Shown in pieces: positions 5,740 through 64,000 of a DNA stretch of 64,000 nucleotides; within the stretch, counting starts at the first letter, position 1, and the number at the start of each line of letters is the position of its first letter. The stretch is from Malacoraja senta. Its lineage: Eukaryota. The position numbers and the translations under genes are program-made. The stretch is from positions 8,186,001 through 8,250,000 of the forward strand of contig CM075989.1 in NCBI GenBank assembly GCA_038087875.1. The letters run 5' to 3'. Below the pieces are notes generated by a model, which was given only the letters and a program-made list of their open reading frames with translations, was not told where the DNA came from and did not search any database.

Positions 5740-7128
5740 GGAAGGTTCAGGGTAGCTAATGTAACCCCACGTTTTAAGAAAGGAGAGAGAAAACAGGGAA
5801 TTATAGACCTGTAAGCTTGATATCCATAGTGGGTAAGATGCTTGTGTCGATTATTAAAGATGTAATAGCAGCGCATTTGGAAAGCAGTGACAGGATCGGT
5901 CAAAGTCAACATAGACTTAAGAAGGGGAAATCATGCTTGACTAATCTTCTGGAATTTTTTGAGGAAGTAACAAGTAGAATGGATAAGGGAGAGCCAGTGA
6001 ATGTGGTGTATCTGGACTTTCAAAAGCCCTTGACAAGGTCCTACACAAGAGATTGGTGTGCAAAATTAAAGTACATGGTATTGGGGGTAAGGTATTGACA
6101 TGGATATAGAACTGGTTGGCTGACATGAAGCAAAGAGTAGGAATTAACGGGTCCTTTTCAGAATGGCAGGCAGTGACTAGTGAGACTCAGTGCTGGGATC
6201 CCAGTTATTTACAATATATATTAATGATTTGGACTAGGGAATTAAATGTAACATCTTCAAGTTTGCGGATGACACAAAGCTGGGTGGCAGTGTGAGGTAC
6301 GAGGAAGATGCTATGAGACTGCAGGGTGACTTGGATAGGTTGGGTGAGTGGGCAGATGCAGTATAATTTGTATAAATGTGAGGTGGCAAGAACAGGAAGG
6401 CAGATTATCATCTGAATGGTGTCAGATTAGGAAAAGGGGAGGTGCAACAAGACCTTGTCACTGAAAGTAAGCATGCAGTTACAGCAGGCAGTGAAGAAAG
6501 CTAATGGCATGTTGGCCTTCATTGCGAGAGGATTTGAGTTTAGGAGCAAAATGGTTCTACTGCAGTAGTACAGGGCCCTGGTGAGACCGCACCTGGAGTA
6601 TTGTGTGCAGGTTTGGTCCCCTAATTTGAGGAAGGACATTATTGCTATCAAGGGAGTACAGCGTAGATTCACCAGGTTAATTGCCGGATGGCAGGACTGA
6701 CATATGATGAAAGAATGGGTTGACTGGGCTTGTATTCACTGGAATTTAGGAGAGGGGATCTTATAGAAACATAACATTCTTAAAGGATTGGACATGCTAG
6801 ATACAGGAAAAATGTTCCCAATGTTGGCGGAGTCCAGAACCAGGGGTCATAGTATAAGAATAAGGGGTTGGCCATTTTGGACTATGATGCAGAAAAACCT
6901 TGACCCAGACAGTTGTAAATCTGTGGAATTCTCTGCCACAGAAGGCAGTGGAAGCTAATTCACTGGATGTTTTCAAGAGAGAGTTAGATTTAGCTCTTAG
7001 GGCTACAGGGATCAAGGAATATGGGTAAAAAGCAAGAACAGGGTACTGATTTTGGATGAGCAGCCATGATCATATTGAATGGCTGCCTTGAAAGGCCAAA
7101 TGGCCTACTCCTATTTTCTATGTTTCTA
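5740..7128 (+). mobile_element. CR1 LINE, 5'-truncated, disrupted RT
   Basis: GKSCLTNLLEFFEEVTS..YLDFQK, KFADDTKL motifs; CR1 3'UTR ending ttctatgtttcta. Confidence 0.9.
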
Positions 7129-25372: not shown

Positions 25373-25453
25373 ATATATATATACACATATATATATATAT
25401 ACACATACATTTACACATACATTTACACATATATATATACACACACACACATA
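25373..25453. repeat. (TA)/(CA) microsatellite left of Tc1 (continues 27064-27174)
   Basis: Directly visible. Confidence 0.95.
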
Positions 25454-27063
25454 GAGGGGCTTGCAAAAGTTTTCATACCCCTTGAACTTTTCCACATTTT
25501 GTCACGTTACAACCACAAACGTAAATGTATTTTATTGGGATTTTATGGGATAGACCAACACAAAGTGGTGCATAATTGTGAAGTGGAAGGAAAATGATAC
25601 ATGGTTTTCAAATTTTTTTACAAATAAAAAACTGAAAAGTGTCACGTGCAAAAGTATTCAGCCCCCCTGAGTCAATACTATGTAGAACCACCTTTCGCTG
25701 CAATTACAGCTGCAAGTCTTTTGGGGTATGTCTCTACCAGCTTTGCACATCTAGAGACTGAAATTTTTGCCCATTCTTCTTTGCAAAATAGCTCAAGCTC
25801 AGTCAGATTGGATGGAGAGCGTCTGTGAACAGCAATTTTCAAGTCTTGCCAGAGATTCTCAATTGGATTTAGGTCTGGACTTTGACTGGGCCATTCTAAC
25901 ACATGAATATGCTTTGATCTAAACCATTCCATTGTAGCTCTGGCTGTATGTTTAGGGTCGTTGTCCTGCTGGAAGGTGAACCTCCGCCCGTCTCAAGTCT
26001 TTTGCAGACTCCAACAGGTTTTCCTCCAAGATTGCCCTGTATTTGGCTCCATCAATCTTCCCATCAACTCTGACCAGCTTCCCTGTCCCTGCTGAAGCAA
26101 AGCATCCCCACAGCATGATGCTGCCACCACCATGTTTCACAGTGGGGATGGTGTGTTCAGGGTGATGTGCAGTGTTTGGTTTCCGCCACACATAGCGTTT
26201 TGCATTTAGGCCAAAAACTTCAATTTTGGTCTCATCTGACCAGAGCACCTTCCTCCACATGTTTGCTGTGTCCCCCACATGGCTTGTGGCAAACTGCAAA
26301 CGGGACTTCTTATGGCTTTTTTTCAACAATGGCTTTCTTCTTGCCACTCTTCCATAAAGGCCCGATTTGTGGAGTGCACGACTAATAGTTGTCCTGTGGA
26401 CAGATTCTCCCACCTGAGCTGTGGATCTCTGCAGCTCCTCCAGAGTTACCATGGGCCTCTTGGCTGCTTCTCTGATCAATGCTCTCCTTGCCTGTCAGTT
26501 TAGGTGGACAGCCATGTCTTGGTAGGTTTGCAGTTGTGCCATACTCTTTCCATTTTCGGATGATGGATTGAACAGTGCTCCGTGAGATGTTCAAAGCTTG
26601 GGATATTTTTTTATAACCTAACCCTGCTTTAAACTTCTCCACAACTTTATCCCTGACCTGTCTGGTGTGTTCCTTGGGCTTCATGATAGCGTTTGTTCAC
26701 TAATGTTCTCTAACAAACCTCCGAGTCCTTCACAGAACAGCTGTATTTATACTGAGATTAGATTACACACAAGTGGACTCTATTTACTAATTAGGTGACT
26801 TCTGAAGGCAATTGGTTGCACTGGATTTTATTTAGGGGTATCAGAGGAAAGGGGGCTGAATACTTTTGCACGCGACACTTTTTCAGTTTTTTATTTGTAA
26901 AAAATTTGAAAACCATGTATCATTTTCCTTCCACTTCACAATTATGCGCCACTTTGTGTTGGTCTATCACATAAAATCCCAATAAAATACATTTACGTTT
27001 GTGGTTGTAACGTGACAAAATGTGGAAAAGTTCAAGGGGTATGAATACTTTTGCAAGCCACTG
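25454..27063 (-). mobile_element. Full-length Passport-like Tc1/mariner DNA transposon (DD34E)
   Basis: About 210-bp TIRs (25454-25668, 26851-27063) with inner and outer TGCAAAAGTATTCA repeats; TA at 25452-25453 and 27064-27065; 1.6 kb. Confidence 0.95.
25672..26684 (-). pseudogene. Tc1 transposase with two small frameshift deletions and a near-terminal stop
   Basis: MKPKEHTRQVRDKVVEK..; [20 protein letters not shown] with 34 aa between D and E; frameshifts near 26490 and 25990. Confidence 0.93.
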
Positions 27064-27319
27064 TATATACACACATATATATACACACACATATATATAC
27101 ACACACATATATATACACACACACACATATTTATATATACACACACATACATATATATATATATATACATATATCCTGCTACATAAGCATATCTCACCTT
27201 GAGATCAGACGAGACAACTACAGCAACTTCAGCTACAGCAGCAATGACAATTATGTTAGTGGACCAAACTTGCATGTAAAACCTAAATAAAACAAGTGTT
27301 TATTCAGACAATTACAAAC

Positions 27320-28850: not shown

Positions 28851-31255
28851 GGTTAAGGAGAGGCTGCAGAAGGTTTTCTGGAAAGGTTTAAAACCAGCTA
28901 CGGCAACCAGTCAGGTGACACTCAGTATCAGCAAGGAAATGACTCGCCACAGTTTTGTGCTACGCTTATGAACTGTTTGCCTTCCAGCGTCGCAATGGCT
29001 ATTAAAACCAATAATATGGACTGGTCAGAGTCTTCACCGGCCCGCATGTCAAGAGCTGTGAAAGCCTTTTGGAAAAACTGTCCTGTTGGAGACAGGGAAG
29101 CCCACATAAAGGCAAAAAATGAATATGTGAGCAAGCCAAACTATTTGCGCTGACTAGAGCCTGCACCCTGGCCGAAGGACTATCTGCAAATATTTACACG
29201 GATTCCCAATATGCTTTTGGAGTGGTTCATGATTATGGACAATTATGGAAGAATGGGGGGTTTCTAACCTCTTCAGGGACAGTGATATCTCACAAAAATT
29301 GGTTTCTAATTTGCTACAGGCCATTCAGTTACCCAGTCAGCTTGCTGTTATCAAAGTTAGAGCCCATACTATAGGCCAAAGCCCCAGAGACATAGGAAAT
29401 CGCCTTGCCGACGAGGCAGCTAAGAAAGCTTTTAGGAGTCACCAAATTGTTGTGCCCCACATGCTGTGGCAGACTAAAAATTATACTAGGAAGTCTCCCC
29501 TGGAAAAAGGAAGTACTTCAGGTACCCAAACTTCAGGTACCCAAGGAAGCCAACCATCCAGGAAGTACTTCAAATATAGGAGGACGATCCTGCCCAGGTA
29601 AAACAGCTGTGGCAGGACTAGGGTTGTGTGGTACGATCCTGTCACTAGCTTGTGGGTTACGCCTGCCAGCAAGACTTGCGTTGTGGGTTATTGAATGTGT
29701 ACACTTTGCAACTCATTGTGGTGCCAAGGCCGTACGTGATATGCTTTTAGAGACCCGGTGGCATCCAAAACCTCTGGACTTGTCCCAGCGTATCTGCCAG
29801 CGATGTCTGATTTGCCAGCAGCATAATCCAGCTAAGGACTGGCCCTGTGAACCAGGTAAGACCCCTTTACCAGCAGGTCCCTTTGAGACTTTGCAAATGG
29901 ACTACATTGAGTTGGAAAGATCTCAGTGTTATATGTTCTTGTAATTGTTGATGTTTTTAGTAAATGGATAGTTATCGTTGGTGCCTCTCATGTGTGTGGT
30001 AGCATTATATTTTTGAATGAATCAGACCAAGAGGAAATATAAAAGATTCAAGGGACTGAGTGGATGATGTTTGAAAGATTCTTTGTGTAACTGATTTTAC
30101 AAAGGATGTGAGTTTATTGCAATAGGCAGAATCAGGGATTGTAAAATGAGCAAATGCAAAGGTGTTGTTAATAAACCATGTATCTGGGGCGTTACTGCGC
30201 TGTATAAAACTGCAGTTGCCGCATGCCTGCCGCTGGGCTGATCCCCTAACACCGCCAGTTCCATCTGGGTGTGAAACCATGTGGATAAATGAAATGGATT
30301 AAAGCATATCCGACCACTGACAATAAAGCCTCTAACGTTGTAAAAATATTATTACGCGAAATCATACCGTGATTCGATGTACCTGCGCGTTTAAGTTCAG
30401 ATAATGGTCCTCATTTTATTGCTGCTATAAACAAAGAAATGTGCCATCAATTACAGATACATCAACAGCTCCATTGTGCGTATCGACCTTAGGTCGCCGG
30501 ATTGGTGGAACGAGCAAACCAGAAATCCAAATTAGCAAAATTAGTGGCACAGACTGGCTTAACATGGTTAAAACTGCTCCCTGTAGCTCTTTTTCAGATA
30601 CGGACCACTCCTTCTGGTACGGCACAAATAACGCCTGCGGAAATCATATATGGTCGACCTTTACAGATGCCATGGAACGACCATGGCCCCCGTGATGGTC
30701 CATTTCCACCAGATTACTGAGGAAATGACATCCTATGTATTAACGTTAATCCGTGCTTTGCGAACTTCTCATTCACGGGTCAGGGCTGCATATGGTGAGT
30801 GCTCAAAGTTCCATCTAATATTGAGCCAGGTTGCTAGGTGCTGGTCAGGAACTGGACGAGTAAGCACCTCAACGCACGTTGGGATGGTAATTTGCAGGTT
30901 CTCCTCACCGCTCCGACCGCAGCCCTTAAATCGAGGGTCGCGCTGCGTGGGTTCACCCGAACCACTGCAAATTGATTGGGGAGACCAATTAAAAGGGGGG
31001 AAGAAGAGTAATTTTATTTTTAATTTAGAGTTTTTTTCGTTTAAGTTTAGTTTTGAATCTTAATAAGTTTAGTTTTTGAATCCTTATTTTGCTATATGGT
31101 TAAGAATATGCAACTGAATACTGGACTGACTGACTGAAGGACGTTTAAATTGAGTGAATTTGTTGTTTAAGCTAATTAAGTAAGAAATTAGCTTTTTGTG
31201 AGGCTTTGCATATTCCAGATAAATCAAAATGAGGCGATTCATCCTGCTATGCATA
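28850..31255 (+). mobile_element. Class I (epsilon-like) endogenous retrovirus fragment: putative gag piece, RNase H, integrase, PPT, probable 3' LTR start
   Basis: ALTRACTLAEG..ANIYTDSQYAFGVVHDYG..W; KVRAH..GNRLADEAAK; H-H-C-C zinc finger; LQMDYI; SSDNGPHF; GLVERAN; PPT AAAAGGGGGGAA near 30991-31002. Confidence 0.88.
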
Positions 31256-32829
31256 GATACATAGAAAATAGGTGCAGTTAGATCATCCAACTCAGTATCC
31301 CGTACCTGCCTTCTCTCCATACCCCCTGATGCCTTTAGCCACAAGGGCCACATCTAACTCCCTCTTAAATATAGCCAATGAACTGGCCTCAACTACCCTC
31401 TGTGGCAGAGAGTTCCAGAGATTCACCACTCTGTGTGAAAACGTTTTTTCTCATCTCGGTCTTAAAGGATTTCCCCCTTATCCTTAAGCTGTGACCCCTT
31501 GTCCTGGACTTCCCCAACATCGGGAACAATCTTCCTGCATCTAGCCTGTCCAACCCCATAAGAATTTTGTAAGTTTCTATAAGATCCCCTCTCAATCTCC
31601 TAAATTCTAGCGAGTATATGCCGAGTCTATCCAGTCTTTCTTCATATGAAAGTCCTGACATCCCAGGAATCAGTCTGGTGAACCTTCTCTGCACTCCCTC
31701 TATGGCTATAATGTCCTTCCTCAGATTTGGAGACCAAAACTGTACGTAATACTCCAGGTGTGGTCTCACCAAGACCCTGTACAACTGCAGTAGAACCTCC
31801 CTGCTCCTATACTCAAATCCTTTTGCTATGAAAGCTAACATACCATTCGCTTTCTTCACTGCCTGCTGCACCTGCATGCCTACTTTCAATGACTGGTGTA
31901 CCATGACACCCAGGTCTCGCTGCATCTCCCCTTTTCCTAATCGGCCACCATTTAGATAATAGTCTGCTTTCCTGTTTTTGCCACCAAAGTGGATAACCTC
32001 ACATTTATCCACATTATACTGCATCTGCCAAATATTTGCCCACTCACCCAGCCTATCCAAGTCACCTTGCAGTATCCTAGCATCCTCCTCACAGCTAACA
32101 CTGCCCCCCAGCTTAGTGTCATCCGCAAACTTGGAGATGTTGCCTTCAATTCCCTCATCCAGCTCATTAATATAAATTGTAAATAGCTGGGGTCCCAGCA
32201 CTGAGCCTTGCGGTACCCCACTAGTCACTGCCTGCCATTGTGAAAAGGACCCGTTTACTCCTACTCTTTTGCTTCCTGTTTGCCAGCCAGTTCTCTATCC
32301 ACATCAATACTGAATCCCCAATACCGTGTGCTTTTAAGTTTGTATATTAAACTCTTATGTGGGACCTTGTCGAAAGCCTTCTGAAAGTCCAGATACAACA
32401 CATCCACTGGTTCTCCCCTATCCACTCTACTGGTTACATCCTCGAAAAATTCTATAAGATTCGTCAGACATGATTTACCTTTCGTAAATCCATGCTGACT
32501 TGGTTCAATGATTTCACCACTTTCCAAATATGCTGCTATCCCATCTTTAATAACTGACTCTAGCAGTTTCCCCACTACCGATGTTAGACTAACTGGTCTG
32601 TAATTCCCCGTTTTCTCTCTCCCTCCCTTCTTAAAAAGTGGGGTTACGTTTGCTACCCTCCAATCCTCAGGAACTACTCCAGAATCTAAAGAGTTTTGAA
32701 AAATTATCACTAATGCATCCACTATTTCTGGAGCTACTTCCTTAAGTACTCTGGGATGCAGCCTATCTGGCCCTGGTGATTTATCGGCCTTTAATCCATT
32801 CAATTTACCCAACACCACTTCCCGACTAA
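31255..32829 (-). mobile_element. Young CR1 LINE, 5'-truncated, RT largely open
   Basis: ORFs 32818-32261 and 32228-31389: YRPVSLTS, QHGF, YLDFQKAFDKVPH, GVPQGSVLGP, KFADDTKL. Confidence 0.95.
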
Positions 32830-32980
32830 TTTAAGAGACAGTTAGACAGGTACATGGATAGGACAGGTTTGGAGGGATATGGACCAAGCGCAGGCAAGTG
32901 GGGCTAGTGTAGCTGGGACATTGTTGGCCGGTGTGGAAGAGTTGGGCCGAAGGGCCTGTTTCCATACTGTATGACTCTAG
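32830..32980 (+). mobile_element. CR1 3' end (second family) abutting the 5' end of the young CR1
   Basis: Same tail as 11840-11930; gggccgaagggcctgtttcc. Confidence 0.8.
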
Positions 32981-52160: not shown

Positions 52161-53329
52161 GCTACGAATGGGATAAAGTGTAATGAAGACAGTTGCTGTT
52201 ACGCCAGTTCTTTTAATCTTGAAAAGCAATTTGGTCAGTTACTGTGACTATATTTGCTTCCCATTTGTCAATTGTCGAGTGGCACAGTAGGATATCCTAC
52301 TCTCCCAAACTGCCAGAAAAAAGCTATAGAAAAATAAAATACTAACGTGAAAATGAAGCACACAAAAAAGACAAAAGAAAGTTCCACTGCTTAATTGCAT
52401 GAATCTTAATTCCACTTTGTTCCACTTGCATTAATTTAATCTATCTTGCAGAATTAAAAAGTTATGTGCATAACCTATTGATGGATCCTCAGATTTATCT
52501 GTTTAATGGTGGACCTGCTCTTCTGATCTGACTGTCAGATCAATGAGATTTAGGACAGCTGACTGTACCATTTAGTGACATGCAAATGTTAAAATACAGC
52601 ATGAAAAATTGATTGATTAATTTGAAGAGTTATGAATCAACCAGGCCCACTGTCGCAGTGCCAAATTGATTCTGTCTTTTTAGTGCTTGTCATTTCCTGC
52701 TTAATTTCATTCGGTTGGCACTAGAGACCTTAATACAATTAAGACAGTTGTAAAATTAGCAATCTTCAAAGAAATAAAAGGGGTTGCGGAGGGGAACAGA
52801 AATCAATCTCGCTTTGCAACCCATTAATGTAAGCATTTGCATTCTAAACATAATCAAGCAAAATGATAAAATGTTGAAAAGTAAGTACTTTTATGTCTTT
52901 TATGAATATCTTGTAGTTGAGTTCTCAGATCGACAATGATATTGATGCTCAAGCAGGATCCAGTAAAGGCAAAAATATTGACAGCAATCAGCCAAAGACT
53001 AATTTAAAGTTTCTCTTAAGATGCTTTCGTGTTTACTTATATTAGTGGTAATAGTGCCACTTGCTTTCAAAATACGAGAATAGCACAGCCATAATAGCCA
53101 TAATAGTAAATTTACAGATTTATTCAGTTGAATACTTAACTTTGACTGGCTTTTGGATTCAGCATTCTCCCAGCTTCATGAGACTTGTGCCATAACATTG
53201 GATCTTCACAAAAAGCTTATATAAAGCACCAAGATTCATGTATGGCAACATAATGGGCCTGTCCCACTTAGGAAGAAGAAAGGGAGAGACAGTAGGCTGA
53301 GGGAGAGCTGAGAAGGGGATCTATCATCT

Positions 53330-53812
53330 ATCCTCATCTATTGCATCTGCTGCTCTGGATGTCAGCTGCTCTACATCGGTGAGACCAAGCGTAGGCTTGG
53401 CGATCGCTTAGCCGAGCACCTCCACTCGGTTCCCAATAACCAACCTGATCTCCCAGTTGCTCAGCACTTCAACTCCCCCTCCCATTCCGAATACGATCTT
53501 TCTGTCCTGGGCCTCCTCCATGGCCAGAGTAAGGACCACGGTAAATTGGAGGAGCAGCACCTCATATTTCGCTTGGGCAGTTTGCACCCCAGCGGTATGA
53601 ACATTGACTTCTCTAATTTCAGGTAGTACCTACTTTCTCCTCACCTTCTCAGCTCTCCCTCAACCCACTGGTTCCACCTCTTCCTTTCTTCTTAGCGCCC
53701 CCCCACCCTCGCATCAGTCTGAAGAAGGGTTTCGACCCGAAACGTTGCCTATTTCCTTCGCTCCATAGATGCTGCCTCACCTGCTGAGTTTCTCCAGCAT
53801 TTTTGTCTACCT
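53330..53812 (+). mobile_element. Penelope 3' fragment (GIY-YIG plus pLTR with intact hammerhead core)
   Basis: CQLLYIGETKRRLGDRLAEHL..MNIDFSNFR; CTGAAGA-AGGGT-TTCG-ACCC-GAAACGTT at 53719-53746. Confidence 0.9.
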
Positions 53813-54934
53813 TAAATTTGATTTTATGATCTGTAGAGGCTTTTTTTTGCATCTGTAACCATAGGTGTATTAATGCAATTGAAAGCATGAAAGAAAAGGG
53901 ATACAATATTTGGGTCATATCTCTGGTAGGATCATGTGTGTCTTGAATCAGGCACCAGATGATGCTTGCAATGATGCAACGATGAGTTGCTTTGTGAGAC
54001 TGATTTCCCTACCTTCACTTCTCTCTCCAATCAACCCTATTCCCTTCCCTACATCACAATTTCCAACCACACACATGATCATTTCCTTGAGGATTGTTCA
54101 ATTTTACACCTTTATTCATTAAGGTTTCAGTGCCAAAGGTGTGAATTAGGAAATAACAAGCCTAGCTAGACAGAATAAATTTGGCACGCCTAAATTGGAC
54201 CTGGTTGATTCTCAGCTCTTAAAAATTGCAAGTTTAAGATAGTATTATTGGATCGTATTGCAAATACAAGCAGATCAAGATAATCTGAATTGGAACAGAT
54301 TAAAGTTTCAGATGGGACCCAAAAACAATTCTGATGAAAGGTTCACTAGCCATTACAGCTGAAAGAAAGATAAATTTTAATTTCCAGATCAGTCTAAATC
54401 AGTCAAAATTAGCTTTTAATTATTAGATTCACAAATTTGAAAAAAAAAACAATTTTGCAAAATCGGCTGTTTCATAAGGTTTAGATTATGTACTCCATCT
54501 ACTGACACTGGAGAAAGCATTGATATTGTCTATAAATCTGCCTCTTGTACAATATACACTTTAAAAAAATTATGAATCCATAAAAAAGTAAATGGGATTG
54601 TACCAGTATTGTTCCCATTACAATATTATTTTAAACACAAATATAGTGCATAAAGTTATGCACTTCTCCCCATCTTGCCCATGTCCAAACCAGAATTCCA
54701 GAATTATGATCTTTAATCCATCCCAGCTGTCTTTAGAAACCTCCTCACCTCAGTGGTCATTCTTCACCTGGTGGCTTTGATAGTGAGAGTCAGTATTAGA
54801 TTTGGAGGAGGAACCTCTGAACTAAATTCTGCCCACGATGAACATCCAGAGAGGTTGTTTCTTTTTGGATATGTGCATTGCTGACAAAGTCAGCATTTAT
54901 TGCCCTAACTTAATGAGAGTAAGGTATAAACTTG

Positions 54935-57456
54935 TTTAAGAAAGAACTGCAGATGCTGGAAAAATAGGTAGACAAAAATGCTGGAGGAACTCAGCGGGTG
55001 AGGCAGCATCTATGGAGAGAAGGAATAGGTGATGTTTCGGCTTGAGACCCTTCTTCAGACTGATGTCGGAGATGGGGGGGGTGGGGGAAGGAAGAGGAGG
55101 AGACAGTAGGCTCGTGGGATAGCTGGGAGGAGAAGGAGGGAGAAAGCAAGGACTATCTGAAATTTGAGAAGTCAATGTTCATACCGCTGCGGTGTAAACT
55201 ACCCAAGCGAAATATGAGGTGCTGTTCCTCCAATTTGCGCTGGGCCTCACTCTGGCAATGGAGGAGGCCCCGGACAGAAAGGTCAGATTTGGAATGGGAG
55301 GGGGAGTTGAAGTGCTGAGCAACCGGGAGATCAGGTTGGTTAGTGTGAACTGGGCGGAGGTGTTGGGCGAAGCAATCACTGAGCCTGCGTTTGGTCTCGC
55401 CGATGAAGAGAAGTTGACACCTGGAACAGCGGATGCAGTAGATGAGGTTGGAGGAGGTGCAGGTGAACCTGTGCCTCACCTGGAAAGACTGCTTGGGTCC
55501 TTGGATGGAGTCGAGGGGGGAGGTAGAGTGACAAGTTTTGCATTTCCTGCGGTTGCAAGGGAGAGTACCCGGGGAGGGGTGGTATGGGTGGGAAGGGACG
55601 AATTGACCAGGGAGTTATGGAGGGAACGGTCTCCGCAGAAAGCAGAAAGGGGAGGAGATGGGAAGATGTGGCCAGTGGTAGGATCCTGTTGGAGGTGGCG
55701 AAAATGCCGGAGGATTATATGTTGCATGCGACGGCTGATGGGGTGGAAGGTGAGGACAAGGGGGACTCTGTCCTTGTTACGAGTAGAGGGATGGGGAGTA
55801 AGAGCAGAGCTGCTGTTCCACCGAACTTATTTCCACATACCTCGACTCCATCCTATCCCCTCTGGTCATGTCCCTCCCCACCTATGTCCAAAACACCTCA
55901 CACGCTCTTCGTTTCCTTCATGACTTCTGTTTTCCAAGCCCCTACTCCCTCATCTTCCCTATGGATGTCCAGTCACTCTACTCCTCCATCCCCCACCAGT
56001 AGGGTCTTAAAGCTTTCCGTTTCTTCCTCGACCGAAGAACCAACCAATCTCCGTCTACTAATACTCTTCTCCGCCTAGTGGAGCTGGTCCTTACTCTCAA
56101 CAACTTTTCCTTTGTCTCCTCCCATTTCCTCCAAATCCAAGGCGTAGCTATGGGCACGCGCATGGGCCTCAGCTATGCCTGCCTCTTTGTAGGGTACGTC
56201 GAACAATCCCTGTTCTAGGCATACCGTGGCTCTATACCCTGAACTCTACCTCCGCTACATTGACGACTGCATTGGTGCTACCTCCTGCACCCATGCAGAA
56301 CTCACTGAATTCATCCATTTCACCCTTAATTTCCATCCGGCATTCAAATTCACCTGGACCCTTTCCGACATCTCCCTACCGTTTCTAGATCCCACCATCT
56401 CCATCGCAAACAACAGACTACTTACCGACGTCTACTACAAACCCACTGACTTCTAGCTACCTTGACTACACTTCTTCCCACCCTGCTTCCTGTAAGGACT
56501 CTCTCTCCTACTCCCAATGCCTCAGCCTATGTCACATCTCCACCCAGGATGAAGTGGTCCAGATCAGGGCATCGGAAATGTCCTCACTCTTTAGGGAACG
56601 GAGGTTCCCTTCTTCTATTATAGATGAGGCTCTCACCAGGGTCTCCTCTATATCCCGCAGCTCCGCTCTTACTCTCCATCCCCCTACTCGTAACAAGGAC
56701 AGAGTCCCCCTTGTCCTCATCTTCCACCCCATCAGCCGTCGAATACAACATATAATCCTCTGACATTTTCGCCACCTCCAACGGGATCCTACCATTGGCC
56801 ACATCTTCCCATCTCCCTTGTCAATTCGTCCCTTCCCACCCCCTCCCCGGGTACTTTCCCTTGCAACCGCAGGAAATGCTACACTTGTCGCTTTACCTCC
56901 CCCCTCGACTCCATTCAAGGACCCAAGCAGTCTTTCCAGGTGATGCAGAGGTTCACCTGCAACTCCTCCAACCTCATCTACTGTTCCAGGTGTCAACTTC
57001 CCTACATCGGCGAGACCAAGCGCAGGCTCGGCGATCGCTTCGCCCAACACCTCCGCTCAGTTCACACTAACCAACCTGATCTCCTGGTGGCTCAGCACTT
57101 CAACACCCCCTCCCATTCCGAATCTGACCTTTCTGTCCTGGGCCTCCTCCATTGCCAAAGTGAGGCCCAGCGCAAATTGGAGGAACAGCACCTCATATTT
57201 TGCTTAGGTAGTTTACACCCCAGCAGTATGAACATTGACTTCTCCAATTTCAGATAGTCCTTGCTTTCTCCCTCTTTCCCCTCCACCTTCTTAGCTCTCC
57301 CGCAAGCCTACTGTCTCCTCCTCTTCGTTTCTTTTTCCTTTCCCCTCCCCCCCGACATCAGTCTGAAGAAGGGTCTCAACCTGAAACGTCATCTATTCCT
57401 TCTCTCCATAGATACTGCCTCACCCGCTGAGTTCCTCCAGCATTTTTGTCTACCTC
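54935..57456. mobile_element. Penelope-like element with inverted 5' copy (RT plus GIY-YIG, disrupted)
   Basis: Minus copy 54935-55813, plus copy 55814-57456 with MDVQSLY, GVAMGT.MG, YLRYIDD and GIY-YIG; TSD AG(G/C)TATAAACTTG at 54922-54934 and 57457-57469. Confidence 0.93.
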
Positions 57457-58252
57457 AGCTATAAACTTGAACCATTTTGGTCTTCTGTTAAAGGCACACC
57501 ACTGATCTCTTGACTAGAGAGAACTATGATACATTTGTAAATCAGAATGGTGTAGTCATAGCCTTGACAAGTACCCACAGTGCACTTGGTAGATGATAAT
57601 GCACAGTGAACATCTGATAGTGAATATGAACTGAGGACACTGGTGGCTTTTCAATTCACTAGCTAAAGTTGTAGTGCTAGTTCCAAACCCCAGCAAGTAT
57701 TATCAAGGGTCTGTGCAGCCTGTTTGTACTGTATTCACAGGACAACTATAAGTAAATAATAGTTAGTAATTTGAAAAAGAAAGCCAAAACATCACTGAAC
57801 CAATTTGGTTGCACAGCTTTGTAGTGCAGTATGTAATTATTCAAAATGTTCACGAGGATGGATCATATTGTCCATTATAACTGAAGTCATTTGAATAATT
57901 TTGTAATAAGATGCTGTGAAATTCAAACTTGCAGTTATTTTCTTATCCTTGCCCTTTAATTAATGCGGACATCAGTATGTGTTTTCAGCATCCATCATGA
58001 TTCTCATAAATTAATTGACTCGCACCATTGATGCTCAAACATATTTTAAATAAGTAAAGGTGATGAAATTCAATAAAAATAGGAGAGCAACTTCTAAATT
58101 GTGTGATTTACAATACAAGTTTTTCAGGAACAAAAATCATTCGGTTCCACAGCTCCACAGGAGGTCTGGAGTATGTTTATTTGCACCATACATCAGATAA
58201 ATTTAGTAAAAATAACAATTTAATGTTGGGTTGTGGTATAATACCCCATGTG

Positions 58253-61200
58253 AAATAGTAAGATTAAACGAGAACTTACCAAGTTTGAAGTTTGATCTTT
58301 ATTTTATGAGGAGTTACGTTGGTGATTACGTGAAGACGACCCGTCAGGGCGCATGCGCGTCAATCTTCAAAGCAGCGGTATGAAATCACAGATAACACAA
58401 TATTTGAAGTAACATATTAAGATGAGCAACATGAGAACTACCATATGACCTTTTTTATGAGAGAGGATTGGGCATGGCGGGCACGTAATCACCAACGTAA
58501 CTCCTCATAAAATAAAGATCAAACTTCAAACTTGGTAAGTTCTCGTTTAATCTTACTATTTTACTTCGGAGTCACGTTAGTGACTACGTGAAGGGTTCAA
58601 AGCTCTGTGATTTTATGCCGCAGATCCAAATCCTGGCTTCTCACTGCATTGATTGACTTTCGATGAGAAACAATCAATAATGCGTTAAACATGAAATGTG
58701 AATATCATGCAGTAACAATTGATTTGAATAATCAAAACAACCAGTAACCCCTCTATCCCAGGGGAAACTAAACAGGATTTAATCCTGAATTTACAAACAG
58801 CCTCTCACCGATTGGCAATCAGCCGATAGTAAAAAAAATTTAAACAATTCATTTGACCACCCGGCACCTGTAAGAATATGGCCGATGTGAACATCCATCG
58901 CCCTAGCTGACGACGTTGCTGCTGCACTAGTGGAAAAGGATATATACACTTCAGTGTTAATACCTGCCTGAATCAACATTTGCTTTAAACCACCTTGAGA
59001 TAGTCTGCACTGACATTCTCCTATGTGGCAACATGTAACTAATAAACAATGCTGTTTCCACATTTCTTAAGGTCTTTATAGCTTCAATATAATGAAAATA
59101 AATGTGCCATTACACATAAACATGGATCAGTAGATTATGCTGAAACACAATTTTAACAAACCTGTGACACCTGGCCTGCTCTGTTTGAGCAGGACGCAAA
59201 TATATAACATAACATTCTCTTCAGCAACTTCCATCCTGTCTAGCAGAAGCTTTTGCAAACTCTGCACTTGCTATGCTGAACCAATGCCATGAGCATAACC
59301 ACTTTCATGATTAGTTTGGCAAATTCAGAGACATGACAGGAACCTACTGTCGAAGCATCTTGAGGACCACACTTACATCCCAGATCGTCATATACCTGGG
59401 TTAAGGAGGTTTAGAGTTGAAATTCCTTTCATCAAATTCAGCTCTGATATGATGAAATTCAGCTCTGATATGATGAAACCCAATAGGATCTTTCCTAACC
59501 CCATCAAAACCATACGAGGACAAAGCACTTAAAGCTGTATTAATGGAGCTATAACTGAGCCCCTCATCATCGTAGAGTGTCAACAGGAACTCTAAAATAT
59601 CCACAATACCTGCAGTACTATAGTCAATATTATTTTGTACACAATATTGCTCCCATTTTTTTTAACATAAGTAATATACCCCTTTTGAGTACTCTTTCTC
59701 CAGGCTACAGTGAGCATGTCCACCGTTCACCCAGACAGTCCTTGCTCCAGGTATGGCCTTCTTAAAACCTGCAAATTAACAAGTCAATACTATCACATAA
59801 CAGATGACTTTCCCGTGTTAGCGGATGCTCCAGTAAATTCCTACGCTTGGGAACCACCAAAAAGAGGTTGGATCCCTAACTGTAACATCAAAGGGAACCA
59901 TGCTTGATTCGGCCAATTAGGTATTACAAGCACCCCCAAAGCGGCATCCTGCTTGATTTCTTGCAGACTCCGACCTATTAGGCAAAATGGTAGGAAAATA
60001 TATAAAACATACCACCCCAATGTAACGTCAAAGTATCAATTGCAACTGCCACCTGGTCTGGTTCCCATGAAACCTATTTAGGCTGCTGATGGTTGAACCT
60101 TGATGCAAAACAAATCGATATCTGTCATTCATATATAAGTACTATATTATTGAACACCTCCTGGTTCAACATCCAATCCATGTTGTCATGGAACTTTCGT
60201 GACTTGGCGTCTGCTACTATGTAGAATCTACCTGGTAGATAAATATCTGAAATATATTTTTCAATGCACCAGGCCCAAATTTGATTAGCCAATCTGTCAC
60301 AAAATACCGACTTGATTCCACCGATGTGATTAATATATATGCCACTTGCGTAGTATTGTCAATCTGAAACTGAACATGCAGATCACATTTGTTAGAGCAA
60401 TAAGCCTCTTAATAATTAATTGCCCATGCCTGCAGAAGTGATCCCTCTTGCTCAGTCCATCTGCCTCCACAGCTGAAACTCGTATCCGTGACACCCCACC
60501 CGAGTGCACTGACATTCATCTGCAAAATCATGGAAGGCTGGTCAAGCATTACCTTGCTATAACTTCTGGACACATGGTGAATCCACCATTGCAAATCAGA
60601 AATAGCCTTTACTGATAACTGCATAGGTCTATTATAATGACCTGATTGTATCCTTAATGCCTCCATTAGCTTGATACACCTGTCAATTAGCTCTACCCTT
60701 TTTTCCCTGGGCAGAGTCACTTAATTGAATCAATTCTGACCCAAATAGTCAGGTGTTAATTTGGATTCCTCTGGATGAATAATGCCCAATCTTTGAAAAT
60801 TGGATTTAACAACTATCACCTGTTACTTCAGCTGTTCTCTTGGATACCCCTATATTCAGGATATCATCGAGATAAGCCATGAGCACCTGACCCTGGCCTC
60901 TCAGCATGCCTATTATAGGTTTTAACAATTTTGTTGCCATAGTTGATCCATCCAGGTGAATTTCAAATATCCTTATCCTGCAAATAAACAGACATTGAGT
61001 AATGCGCATCTTTAAGGTCTATAGTTGCCATATAGTATCCTCTTGACCCAGTTGCTTGGCAGTGACAATTCCATCTTACAATGTCTATACTATATCCCCC
61101 ATCCTTTTTTGGCCTGGGAAAATATTAGACACAAATTGATGGGGTTGGTGAACCAACTTTACCATTACACCTTTAACACATAAGCTTGCAAGCGCAGTCT

Positions 61201-63052
61201 GAACATCCATCTGTTCTGTTAATGAAAACTGAATAGTTCTCCCAAGAACATGCTGAATGTGCAACTCACAATTTGGATTGAAATCCATTCGAAACCTTTG
61301 AATAACACTCTGTATAAACAGAGCTAAGGTAATTTGCTTCCATTCATCCCAGAAACAGATGTAATGTACCCCAGATTTAAGTTGTGTCACATTTGATATG
61401 TGCACCTGAGAACCAGGCCCACCTACCTCCTTGGTACCTGGTGGATGACGTTGTCCCCGGCTCCTTGGTGGGAAAGCCAATGTTTGACCATGTTCCCGCT
61501 TAGTTTGTCGGTGTACTTTCTTTTTTGGAAACTTGCCGACTGTGGGTGGCTTGGACAAGCCCACCGTCTTTGCCTCGTCATCCATATCCTTGACACACTT
61601 GGCGAGGTCCTCTCCGAAGAGTAGGTTGGCCGGCTGTATGTTGCTAGGCTGGAAAAATACTGCAATCTTGGAATTAATGGTGGGCCGAATGGTACTTTCC
61701 CTGAGACAATTTATCTAAAAAATGGGTGCTACAAAGCAACCCTAGTACCTCTTGCTGCATCTTCGACACATGCCCTCCATCCACCGTTCTCGCGAACGCC
61801 GTGATTCCTGAGGCAAGTAATTTCAGGATTCTCTGCAGCTTCATCTCCTGGGCACTGCACGCCCACGCCCATCTGGCTCCATATCACCCGGTTCACTGCT
61901 GGCACCTTCTGCAACTCGCAGTTACCCCGTCTCTTGGTAATTCCAGACTTCGACAGGACAGCGAATCGTACTGCCAGAGAATGGACCTCTGACAACGGCC
62001 GTTCTTCGCTATTCAACAAAGTCTCCGTTAGAGTCGGGTCAGAACTGAGCTGACCCTATCGTGGAGGCCAGCTCTTCTCCCAGTGGCACTCCATACTCTG
62101 ACTGGACAGCGAATCGTGCTGCCAGAGAATGGACCTCTGACAACGGCCGTTCTTCGCTAATTTCCAAGTCTCCGTCAGAGTCGGGGTCAGAACTTAGCTG
62201 ACCCTCTGCACTCACCTCATGCATGAGGGTGCTTTAAGCAGCCCTCTACCAGGTGCTGCCGGCGTGGCCTTTCTGCAGCCTACCGCCCACACGACTCCTC
62301 CCCGGAGTGTGCGTTTCTGGAGCAACCTCTGGATGAGGTGCTCCATTTGGGAGAACCGTTTAAAAACGTCTCCAGCCCCGTACAGGCTCGTTGTGGCCCG
62401 ACTCAGTTGAGTCCTAGGGCCTCCCAGACTTCCCCGTGCCTTACACCCGACTGGCGTTGGCTTTGGTGCTTTTTAGCAGTCAGTCTGAAGTCGCCCCGCT
62501 CCTGGTCGGCGTTGGCTTTGGTACTTTTTAGCACTCAGTCTGAAGTCGCCCCGCTCCCGGTCGGCGACTGTGCAGGGGTACGAGGCAGCCGCTGACAGAC
62601 CGCATTCCCGCGGCTCTCCTATGCTTTACCTGCGGCTGCCCTCCCCCTGCTCGTCTTCATCATGGTGCCTGTAATAAAAAACACAGAGCACCACAAAAAA
62701 GAAACGTTTCCCTCCAGCTAAATTTCCCACTTAGCTGGAGCTTTAAAACTATAAAAGTACTTTAAAAGTACTTGCTACAGGAGGAGCTCTGTCCTCCCCT
62801 GCTCGTCTTCACCATGGTGCTGCCTGTGACAAAACACAGAGCACAGCACCACAGTAAAGGAAACGTTTTTACTCCAGCTAAGTTTCTCACTTAGCTGGAG
62901 CTATAAAACTCTTTAAAATTACTCTAAAAGTACTTACCACGGGAGGAGCTCTGTCCTCCCACTGTCCGTGCGCCAATGCGACCGACGTAATGACGCGCAT
63001 GCGCCCTGACGGGTCTTCTTCACGTAGTCACTAACGTGACTCCGAAGTAAAA
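58253..63052 (-). mobile_element. DIRS1-like tyrosine-recombinase retrotransposon, full-length structure, decayed ORFs
   Basis: Inverted terminal repeats (ITRs) with extensions and internal complementary region (ICR) 58482-58593; gag-like (~61400-62663), RT MAYLDDIL, RNase H (SALGWG), methyltransferase-like (DIDLFAS..PNWPNQAWFP ~59890-60130), YR (ILEFL..LSYSSINTA; AAATS..AGWS ~58800-59720). Confidence 0.93.
61955..62204. repeat. About 100-bp block duplicated at ~150-bp spacing in DIRS gag region; further ~55-bp duplication at 62453-62567
   Basis: ggacagcgaatcgt.ctgccagagaatggacctctgacaacggccgttcttcgcta present twice. Confidence 0.9.
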
Positions 63053-63279
63053 TTCAATCTGGCAACAATTAACTATAGGTTGGTGAGACTTCTATCAATG
63101 GTAGGGAAATTATTGGAGAACTTTTTAAGGGAGAGGATTTATGTACATTTATAAAGCAAGGTGTTGATCATGGAATATCAGCTTGTCTTTAGCACCTGTG
63201 GCTGAGAGGAGAAAGGGACAATATCTAATTAGAAATTGCACTGTGACTCAAAAGGGTCATTCAAGCAACATTGCTTAGA

Positions 63280-63575
63280 GGTAGTCAATAGTCAATTTTA
63301 TTCGTCACATACACCCAAAGGTGCAGTGAAATGAATTTGCCAGCAGCGGTACAATTTAAAAAAAACCCACAAAACACAATTAGATTTAACGCAAACATCC
63401 ACCACAGCATTCTACACTGTGGTGGAAGGCACAAAGTTCAGTCAGTCCTCCTTGTTCACCCGTGGTCGGGGCCATAAACCTCCGCAGTCGCCGCTACGGA
63501 CGGCCAGATGTACAGGCCCTCTTGTCGGGACAATCGAACACACTCCGCGGCTTGGAGGTCCCGAATTGGCGCAAT
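63280..63575 (-). mobile_element. 3' part of GC-rich non-autonomous retroposon with Rex1-type tail
   Basis: Core block shared with the 12.8 kb and 16.6 kb elements; tail ttcactgcacc..gtatgtgacgaataaaattgactattgac. Confidence 0.6.
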
Positions 63576-64000
63576 GTTTAGAAAGGAACTGCAGATGCTG
63601 GTTTAAACCGAAGATAGACACAGAAAGCTGGAGTAACTCAGCGGGACAGACAGAGAGAAGGAAGCAACCGCAGAAGATGCAACACCTGTCCCTATACCTC
63701 CTCCCTCGACTCTGTTCCAGGGACCCCGACAGTCCCTTCGGGTTAGGCAGAGGTTCACTTGCACCTCCTCCAACCTCATCTACTGTATCTGTTGTTCAAG
63801 ATGTGGACTCTTATACATTGGCGAGACCAAACATAGACTGGCCGATCATTTCGCTGAACACCTTCGCTCAGCCTGCCTGAACCTACCGGATCTTCCAGAT
63901 GCTAAATACTTTAATTCTCCTTCCCATTCCCACACAGACCTTTCTGTCCTAGGTCTCCCCAATTGTTAGAGTTAGGCTAAACGCAAATCGGAGGAACAGC
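63576..64000. mobile_element. Penelope fragment: inverted pLTR piece then GIY-YIG (+), cut by the window end
   Basis: VRQRFTCTSSNLIYCICCSRCGLLYIGETK. Confidence 0.85.

Follow-up and report, generated by a model that had tools for sequence, protein, structure and literature searches.

Anatomy, coding decay and probable trans amplification of a DIRS1-like retrotransposon family in Malacoraja senta

DIRS1-like elements, described from Dictyostelium (DIRS-1), Xenopus, Tetraodon and Anolis (PMC3266345, PMC9210276, PMC7192593), carry inverted terminal repeats (ITRs), a right extension (rE, a term taken from PMC3266345) and a two-part internal complementary region (ICR) with a 3-bp overlap, and encode gag, a reverse transcriptase-RNase H-methyltransferase protein (RT-RH-MT) and a tyrosine recombinase (YR), in this order. 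An element of this kind occupies positions 58253-63052 of a 64,000-nucleotide stretch of Malacoraja senta DNA (assembly GCA_038087875.1, contig CM075989.1, positions 8,186,001 to 8,250,000), here called the window. It shares these features and the gene order, with TTT ends as in Xenopus, and at 4.8 kb is shorter than the vertebrate elements listed in PMC3266345 (5.6-6.2 kb). Unlike those elements, all of its open reading frames (ORFs) are destroyed, yet it belongs to a high-copy family with shared lesions. Most likely one or a few long-dead DIRS masters, decayed by 6-10% with the cis-acting parts kept, were amplified in trans to hundreds of copies.

Non-autonomous elements of the DIRS order are known, among them Chlamydomonas TOC1 (PMC9940879), and zebrafish DIRS-N1 is named in PMC5400779, the latter being compared by name only. 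The skate element resembles both in the mobility of a YR retrotransposon without working proteins of its own. TOC1 reportedly has split direct repeats and no recognisable pol remnant; unlike TOC1 so described, the present element has an ITR/ICR frame and, within it, about 4 kb of coding DNA that is decayed but still recognisable. Degenerate Repbase DIRS families have been reported from Xenopus tropicalis (36 of 75) and X. laevis (13 of 20), and they resemble the skate family as family-level sequences with interrupted ORFs or incomplete repeats; section 7 of that report reads them as degeneration, with no discussion of trans-mobilisation (PMC9210276). Some of these Xenopus families may represent the same phenomenon. 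Defective long terminal repeat (LTR) masters are copied in trans, and HERV-H has been read as a case of trans-complementation. Shared deletions are reported for HERV-H loci, where, as here, many copies have common disabling gag/pol lesions and intact terminal repeats (PMC6629862). HERV-H differs in its LTR/integrase chemistry, whereas the skate element has ICR-templated ends and a tyrosine recombinase. Gypsy/DIRS1 elements make up 2.5-3.7% of batoid genomes (10.64898/2026.10.27.761883), and further background on DIRS is given in PMC5633606 and PMC8498967. No account of a near-full-length DIRS family with dead ORFs amplified in trans was found in the literature searched, Repbase, Dfam and subscription papers lying outside that search; Repbase or Dfam may contain such a family.

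The element and its terminal structures are as follows.

58253..63052, minus strand: DIRS1-like tyrosine-recombinase retrotransposon, defective, member of a high-copy family (4,800 bp)
62991..63052, minus strand: left terminus and left ITR, 62 bp, beginning TTTT, the outer 35 bp an exact ICR match
58302..58362, minus strand: right ITR, one mismatch against the left ITR at 58337, outside the ICR-covered part
58253..58301, minus strand: rE, 49 bp, ending TTT, complementary to the ICR only and outside the 62-bp imperfect ITR
58482..58593, minus strand: ICR, 112 bp, an 80-bp half and a 35-bp half overlapping in the 3-bp circle junction 58559-58561

An initial sequence-only reading of the locus had described the ICR and the termini as perfectly identical. 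Recomputation agreed for the two ICR pairs: 58482-58561 is the exact reverse complement of 58253-58332 (80/80), 58559-58593 that of 63018-63052 (35/35), and the two halves share TTT at 58559-58561. The word perfect does not extend to the inner 27 bp of the ITR, which has one mismatch, at 58337; in the DIRS-1 model this inner part is also rebuilt in every cycle (PMC7192593). The ICR junction has four T residues, the 5' end four (TTTT) and the 3' end three (TTT), as predicted by crossover in a shared 3-bp core.

Imperfect ITRs (62-bp alignment, 58302-58362 with 62991-63052), an ICR close to the 3' end that complements both extremities through halves overlapping by 3 bp, and the order gag, RT-RNase H-MT, YR (by tblastn and profile alignment) are all present, and a terminal NTT equal to the circle junction without separate target duplication fits, as judged from the element ends. 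The terminal repeats are inverted, and no terminal A1...B1A2B2 set of the split direct repeats typical of Ngaro-like or PAT-like elements occurs among the repeats found. By every structural test the element belongs to the DIRS1-like superfamily, and it is not autonomous, having no open gag, pol or YR frames with catalytic residues. No second DIRS copy was found within the window. The observed/expected CpG ratio is 1.6-1.85 in the ends and ICR, 0.32-0.37 in pol and YR, and 0.45 on average in the window. The ITR core (58340-58362 and 62991-63013) is CpG-rich and contains the palindrome GCGCATGCGC, which we take to be an NRF1-type promoter motif; the core may be a selected promoter.

The coding regions are decayed throughout.

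61400..62630, minus strand: decayed gag region, outer limits approximate; alignable part 61923-61583 with 2 frameshifts and 1 stop
59765..61391, minus strand: decayed pol (RT, RNase H, methyltransferase-like domain) with 14 frameshift calls and 5 stops
58808..59741, minus strand: decayed YR with 10 frameshift calls and 4 stops, HSTR and the conserved Tyr gone

Frameshift-aware alignment, with the closest four pol proteins and with five YR sequences and four of gag as references, gave 26 frameshift calls and 10 stops in total, with pol deletions of about 12, 15, 39 and 9 codons, and the ruin of the coding regions noticed in the sequence-only reading stands. The count of 26 is approximate, as alignment with 72 more distant proteins gave a similar picture of pol with some placements shifted. 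The RT retains YLDD, and the segment aligning to YRALPNGLTTAPRLF is deleted. In the YR, FSTS stands at the HSTR position and Phe in the column of the C-terminal conserved Tyr. The loss of the HxxR motif, likewise noted earlier, is thus real; taken alone it is weak evidence, because HSTR varies among annotated DIRS1-like elements (13/28; PMC3266345). Of 113 pol columns conserved in at least 90% of 104 reference proteins, 25 are changed, whereas the four held-out intact relatives have 4-6 changes each; at 95% conservation the figures are 13 of 82 and 2-3. Simulation of this excess corresponds to about 6-10% neutral substitution.

A direct Pfam scan of three frames gave a single weak match, below cut-off, and word-based protein searches with the decayed MT region gave none, although an alignment query did find relatives. 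An RT-MT read-through query retrieved 2,989 relatives at E <= 0.001, and representative relatives carry RVT_1, RNase_H, Dam and Phage_integrase domains. The nearest named relative is a protein of Leucoraja erinacea, which together with a Penelope-like motif of skates in the flank tentatively points to a cartilaginous fish as host. CpG depletion in pol and YR was considered as evidence of decay and is weakened by an intact 713-codon DIRS pol frame from an unrelated host, with an observed/expected ratio of 0.49. This frame lies on a metagenome contig (L001:1285-3423) whose DNA is 71% identical to that of the element along 154 bases.

Four of 24 public runs, all four consisting of contigs, were compared over positions 57500-63600 at 85% likeness; the other runs (X4 and X6-X24) had shares of 0.03-0.17. 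Runs X1 and X2 represent organism A, possibly the source of the window, and one study, X3 represents organism B and is of unspecified kind, and X5 represents organism C. The sequences on either side of the element are as follows.

57504..58252, no strand: single-copy left flank; the X1 contig 57504-58266 is identical (763/763) at depth 23 and reaches 14 bases into the element
63053..63281, no strand: right flank; the X1 contig 63094-63281 is identical (188/188) at depth 17.6, and an organism C contig aligns from exactly 63050

Summed depth in X1 was 22-30 in the left flank and 4.6e4-5.8e5 in interior bins, and in X2 2-3 and 6.3e3-5.2e4, rising and falling in the bins that contain the termini. 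Relative to the flank, mean depth per contig was 161- to 319-fold at five sites in X1 and 216- to 478-fold at three in X2, which indicates hundreds of copies. As read from this depth, hundreds of loci share exact words across the interior. Since the flanking X1 contigs are identical to the window and single-copy, the amplified unit is the element itself. Another letter reaches at least 10% at 232 X1 sites in the 6,101-base stretch, which places the window copy within about 4% of the family majority, below its decay. Joints in X1 reveal that other copies have further deletions and different numbers of repeats, which continued cycling of sublineages would produce.

The ends are deeper than the interior in organism A and far deeper in organism C, figures that are inflated by double mapping; the excess fits other related DIRS families sharing the ends. 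In organism C the ends and ICR are very deep and the interior is lower and patchy, a patchiness not taken as absence, and neither was the zero cover of the flank in X3. Another very high-copy repeat occupies 63212-63600, and contigs of X1, X2 and X5 join DIRS ends to its position 63572-63579, which suggests a single site within this repeat that has taken DIRS insertions repeatedly.

Long pieces of X3 differ from the window at 57 of 2,748 bases (2.1%; 8 pieces among those listed). They bridge 18 of the 26 frameshift calls with at least 31 letters on each side, and the eight that lie in gap-free pieces are all shared (61851, 61718, 61346, 60853, 60129, 60107, 60003 and 59861), as are deletions of one and two codons at 60784 and 60257. 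Copies with the same disabling lesions, which the sequence-only reading proposed to look for, are thus indicated by these contigs, and the contrary outcome that it named, a single-copy element with private lesions, does not hold: the interior lies at 161-478 times the flank and the frameshifts in gap-free pieces are shared. Nine further bridged calls fall in an X3 piece over the YR with 25 letters missing and none extra; three of the missing letters lie at one T run, and 21 are probably the duplication at 59431-59472. With the T run and the duplication explaining these gaps, at most one other YR frameshift would be unshared. Two X3 pieces end at or next to breakpoints of large deletions (60934 and 60663), where both forms may exist. 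Homopolymer length variants near frameshifts (13% and 5% at one run, 14% at another) were considered as traces of an intact subfamily and dropped, the residue pattern of intact relatives being unmatched at one of them. Homopolymers vary in length anyway.

The age of the insertion was estimated from the regenerated pairs and from internal duplications.

62453..62562, no strand: 55-bp tandem duplication in gag, 3/55 mismatches
61942..62205, no strand: 148-bp-spaced tandem duplication in gag, 7/113 mismatches, the letters of the first copy rare in the family
59431..59472: 21-bp duplication in YR

One mismatch in 142 regenerated positions corresponds to 0.35% per copy (95% interval 0.01-2.0%), and the ICR pairs alone (0/115) give an upper limit of 1.3-1.6%. 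At a divergence of 10% per copy the probability of no mismatch in 115 is 1e-10; set against a decay of 6-10%, the intact ICR pairs place coding decay and insertion far apart in time. The earlier proposal that terminal identity dates the insertion is sound in that decay long precedes insertion and too strict as to the clock, which is loose, up to about 2% per copy. At the mutation rate of the epaulette shark (7e-10 per generation, confidence interval 1.4-14.1e-10; PMC10587355), which may not suit this host, 0.35% amounts to 2.5-25 million generations, and a clock so coarse could span millions of generations. A single burst at about 1% per copy could account for both the X3 differences (57/2,748) and the terminal mismatch (1/142; Fisher p = 0.37), and on these comparisons the amplification is more recent than the decay (about 1% vs 6-10%). 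The three internal duplications carry 11 mismatches in 189 positions vs 1 in 142 at the ends (p = 0.015); their greater divergence is consistent with death before mobilisation and as a clock is ambiguous.

The insertion site was compared with organism C, whose flank contigs show 35 differences from the window in 938 bases (3.7%). Its right-flank contig aligns from exactly 63050, in the core, with 37 letters unaligned. On the assumption that record coordinates run in the record's own direction, the site is quite likely empty in organism C, and orthology in distant species, which the sequence-only reading had named along with the single-copy state, probably does not apply. The burst is probably later than the split from organism C. 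The joints listed, which come from contigs, include no polymorphic empty allele; the left junction is contained in X1, and X2 stops short of it. No RNA sample was among the 24 runs listed.

If dead masters were copied in trans, coding function would have been lost long ago while the ITRs, rE, ICR and TTT junction were retained, and one or a few dead copies would have acted as masters. A dead master would have been transcribed from its left ITR, following the DIRS-1 model, and reverse transcribed with proteins from an intact DIRS of that genome; both ends would be rebuilt on the ICR, the model thereby resetting ICR-terminus identity in each cycle; and a YR would recombine the TTT junction, whose anatomy is observed, with a genomic TTT. 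Gag, RT and YR would presumably all be supplied by the intact DIRS. The observed outcome consists of near-full-length copies by the hundreds, a few percent apart, with shared frameshifts and single-copy flanks. In Dictyostelium the ICR is required for DIRS-1 and the DIRS-1 RT works in trans; a coding-deleted construct made cDNA and no scorable insertion, for a reason tied to the marker, and transformed cDNA suggests that other DIRS-1 proteins also act in trans (PMC7192593).

Several points weigh against amplification of dead masters in trans. The protein searches found no autonomous partner, and the best relatives that are long and intact reach 47-52% identity in pol. Leucoraja erinacea LOC129695449 (P0160) and P0161-P0163, the closest RH-MT-YR and RT-RH-MT proteins found that are wholly or partly intact, stand at this distance from the window copy as related families, not as the immediate parent. 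Summed depth is not a copy number, the mean depth per contig at single sites being the safer figure. The evidence for lesion sharing consists of gap counts from a single run (X3) and not of alignments between full-length copies; eight of the 26 frameshift calls are unbridged, as are all of the three largest pol deletions. The X3 piece over 60335 has 15 extra letters and none missing, so that some sequence deleted in the window copy is present in other copies, with the frame offset of the window kept. The variant and joint results are those among the entries listed, beyond which there are at least 290 substitutions, at least 23 indels and at least 151 joints, and among the joints listed none spans the element in organism C. 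The 148-bp-spaced duplication, with 7/113 mismatches and letters that look nearly private, is excessive for a copy 1% old (P ~0.009), and points to a rarer older sublineage, to a chimeric duplication that joined two differing templates or to an older insertion, nearer 2%.

The chances are roughly equal that the burst is over, the family having spread once at about 1% and neither it nor its helper moving today, which is compatible with amplification in trans. The fit to a single burst and the estimate in millions of generations, if the shark rate suits the host, speak for this, as do about 14 sites among the variants listed where nearly all family depth has another letter than the window copy. 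Against it stand the retention of all CpGs in the ICR pairs and the 9,464 of 36,371 X1 contigs that are at least 99% alike, though these are short and include ends. The sequence-only reading had the element still being mobilised: that it was dead before insertion and amplified as a family is borne out, whereas divergence of up to about 2%, and 2.1% from X3, leaves present-day activity about even. A more specific form of trans amplification, held only tentatively, is that of a full-length parasite of a distant helper, the dominant DIRS lineage here, cycling repeatedly with sharing confined to the ends, held at about 4.8 kb and still inserting; sublineage-specific deletions and duplications would then accumulate, and the length of about 4.8 kb would be imposed by the DIRS cycle through a requirement on size or RNA structure.

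An old single insertion that decayed in place, its ICR and termini kept identical by gene conversion or hairpin repair, is very unlikely. The 80-bp pair is spaced by just 149 bases in a very stable hairpin (58253-58600, z = -21.6, with 0 of 100 shuffles folding equally well), divergence is higher in the internal duplications than at the ends, and some of the duplicated letters seem private; but the second pair, 4.4 kb apart, is exact too, the frameshifts are common to other copies of a high-copy family, and the site appears empty in organism C. Still less probable is multiplication at the DNA level, by segmental duplication, satellite-like amplification or capture by another transposon. It would need no helper, and none was found, but the left flank is single-copy up to the terminus, the right-flank contig 63094-63281 is single-copy, the amplified unit stops at the TTT cores, and such multiplication would not reset ICR-terminus identity after 6-10% decay. 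High-copy repeats polish badly and several frameshifts lie in homopolymer runs, as an assembly artefact would have it, with indel errors producing the frameshifts or polishing by multi-mapping reads producing the identical ends. This is the least probable explanation of all: the flank contigs match the window at 763/763 and 188/188, contigs of an independent study have the same frame offsets, and deletions of tens of codons with 22% change in conserved residues are not polishing errors, although homogenised ends are still conceivable.

The 5' leader of the element holds one more duplication.

62636..62960, minus strand: tandem duplication of about 160 bp, 19 mismatches in 152 aligned bases

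X1 and X2 both have a joint that leaves out one of its units. Each unit (62712-62740 and 62872-62900) contains a self-complementary stretch and a AAGTACTTTAAAAGTACTT-like palindrome, and these stretches are possible RNA structures. Elsewhere in the window, a Tc1/mariner-type DNA transposon lies at 25451-27066, with terminal inverted repeats of about 216 bp that are 96% identical and a 180-codon transposase piece (HTH_Tnp_Tc3_2, E 1e-25). Penelope-like GIY-YIG fragments flank the DIRS copy at 53324-57455 and 63573-64000, in both orientations and 70-85% alike, and an ESM Atlas search with a flanking Penelope-like ORF returned GIY-YIG clusters. LINE-type RT frames of 301 and 189 codons (RVT_1) are located at 31283-32830 and 5749-7059, with a 77.5%-identical inverted copy. 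A 182-codon frame at 29396-29941, with a weak integrase zinc-binding match below cut-off, is probably an LTR-element remnant.

That defective retroelements can be mobilised in trans is well established, which makes the finding less surprising. The DIRS cycle has been only partly tested, and a vertebrate family with dead ORFs and clean ends would be population-scale evidence of the full cycle in trans. For annotators, a DIRS copy riddled with stops need not be an old insertion, and the match between ICR and termini, over about 115-140 bp, can serve as a clock, though a coarse one. The family allows a copy-by-copy test of ICR templating; if the parasite of a distant helper is real, its copies would be a natural test of ICR-templated termini and of the whole trans cycle, including YR integration.

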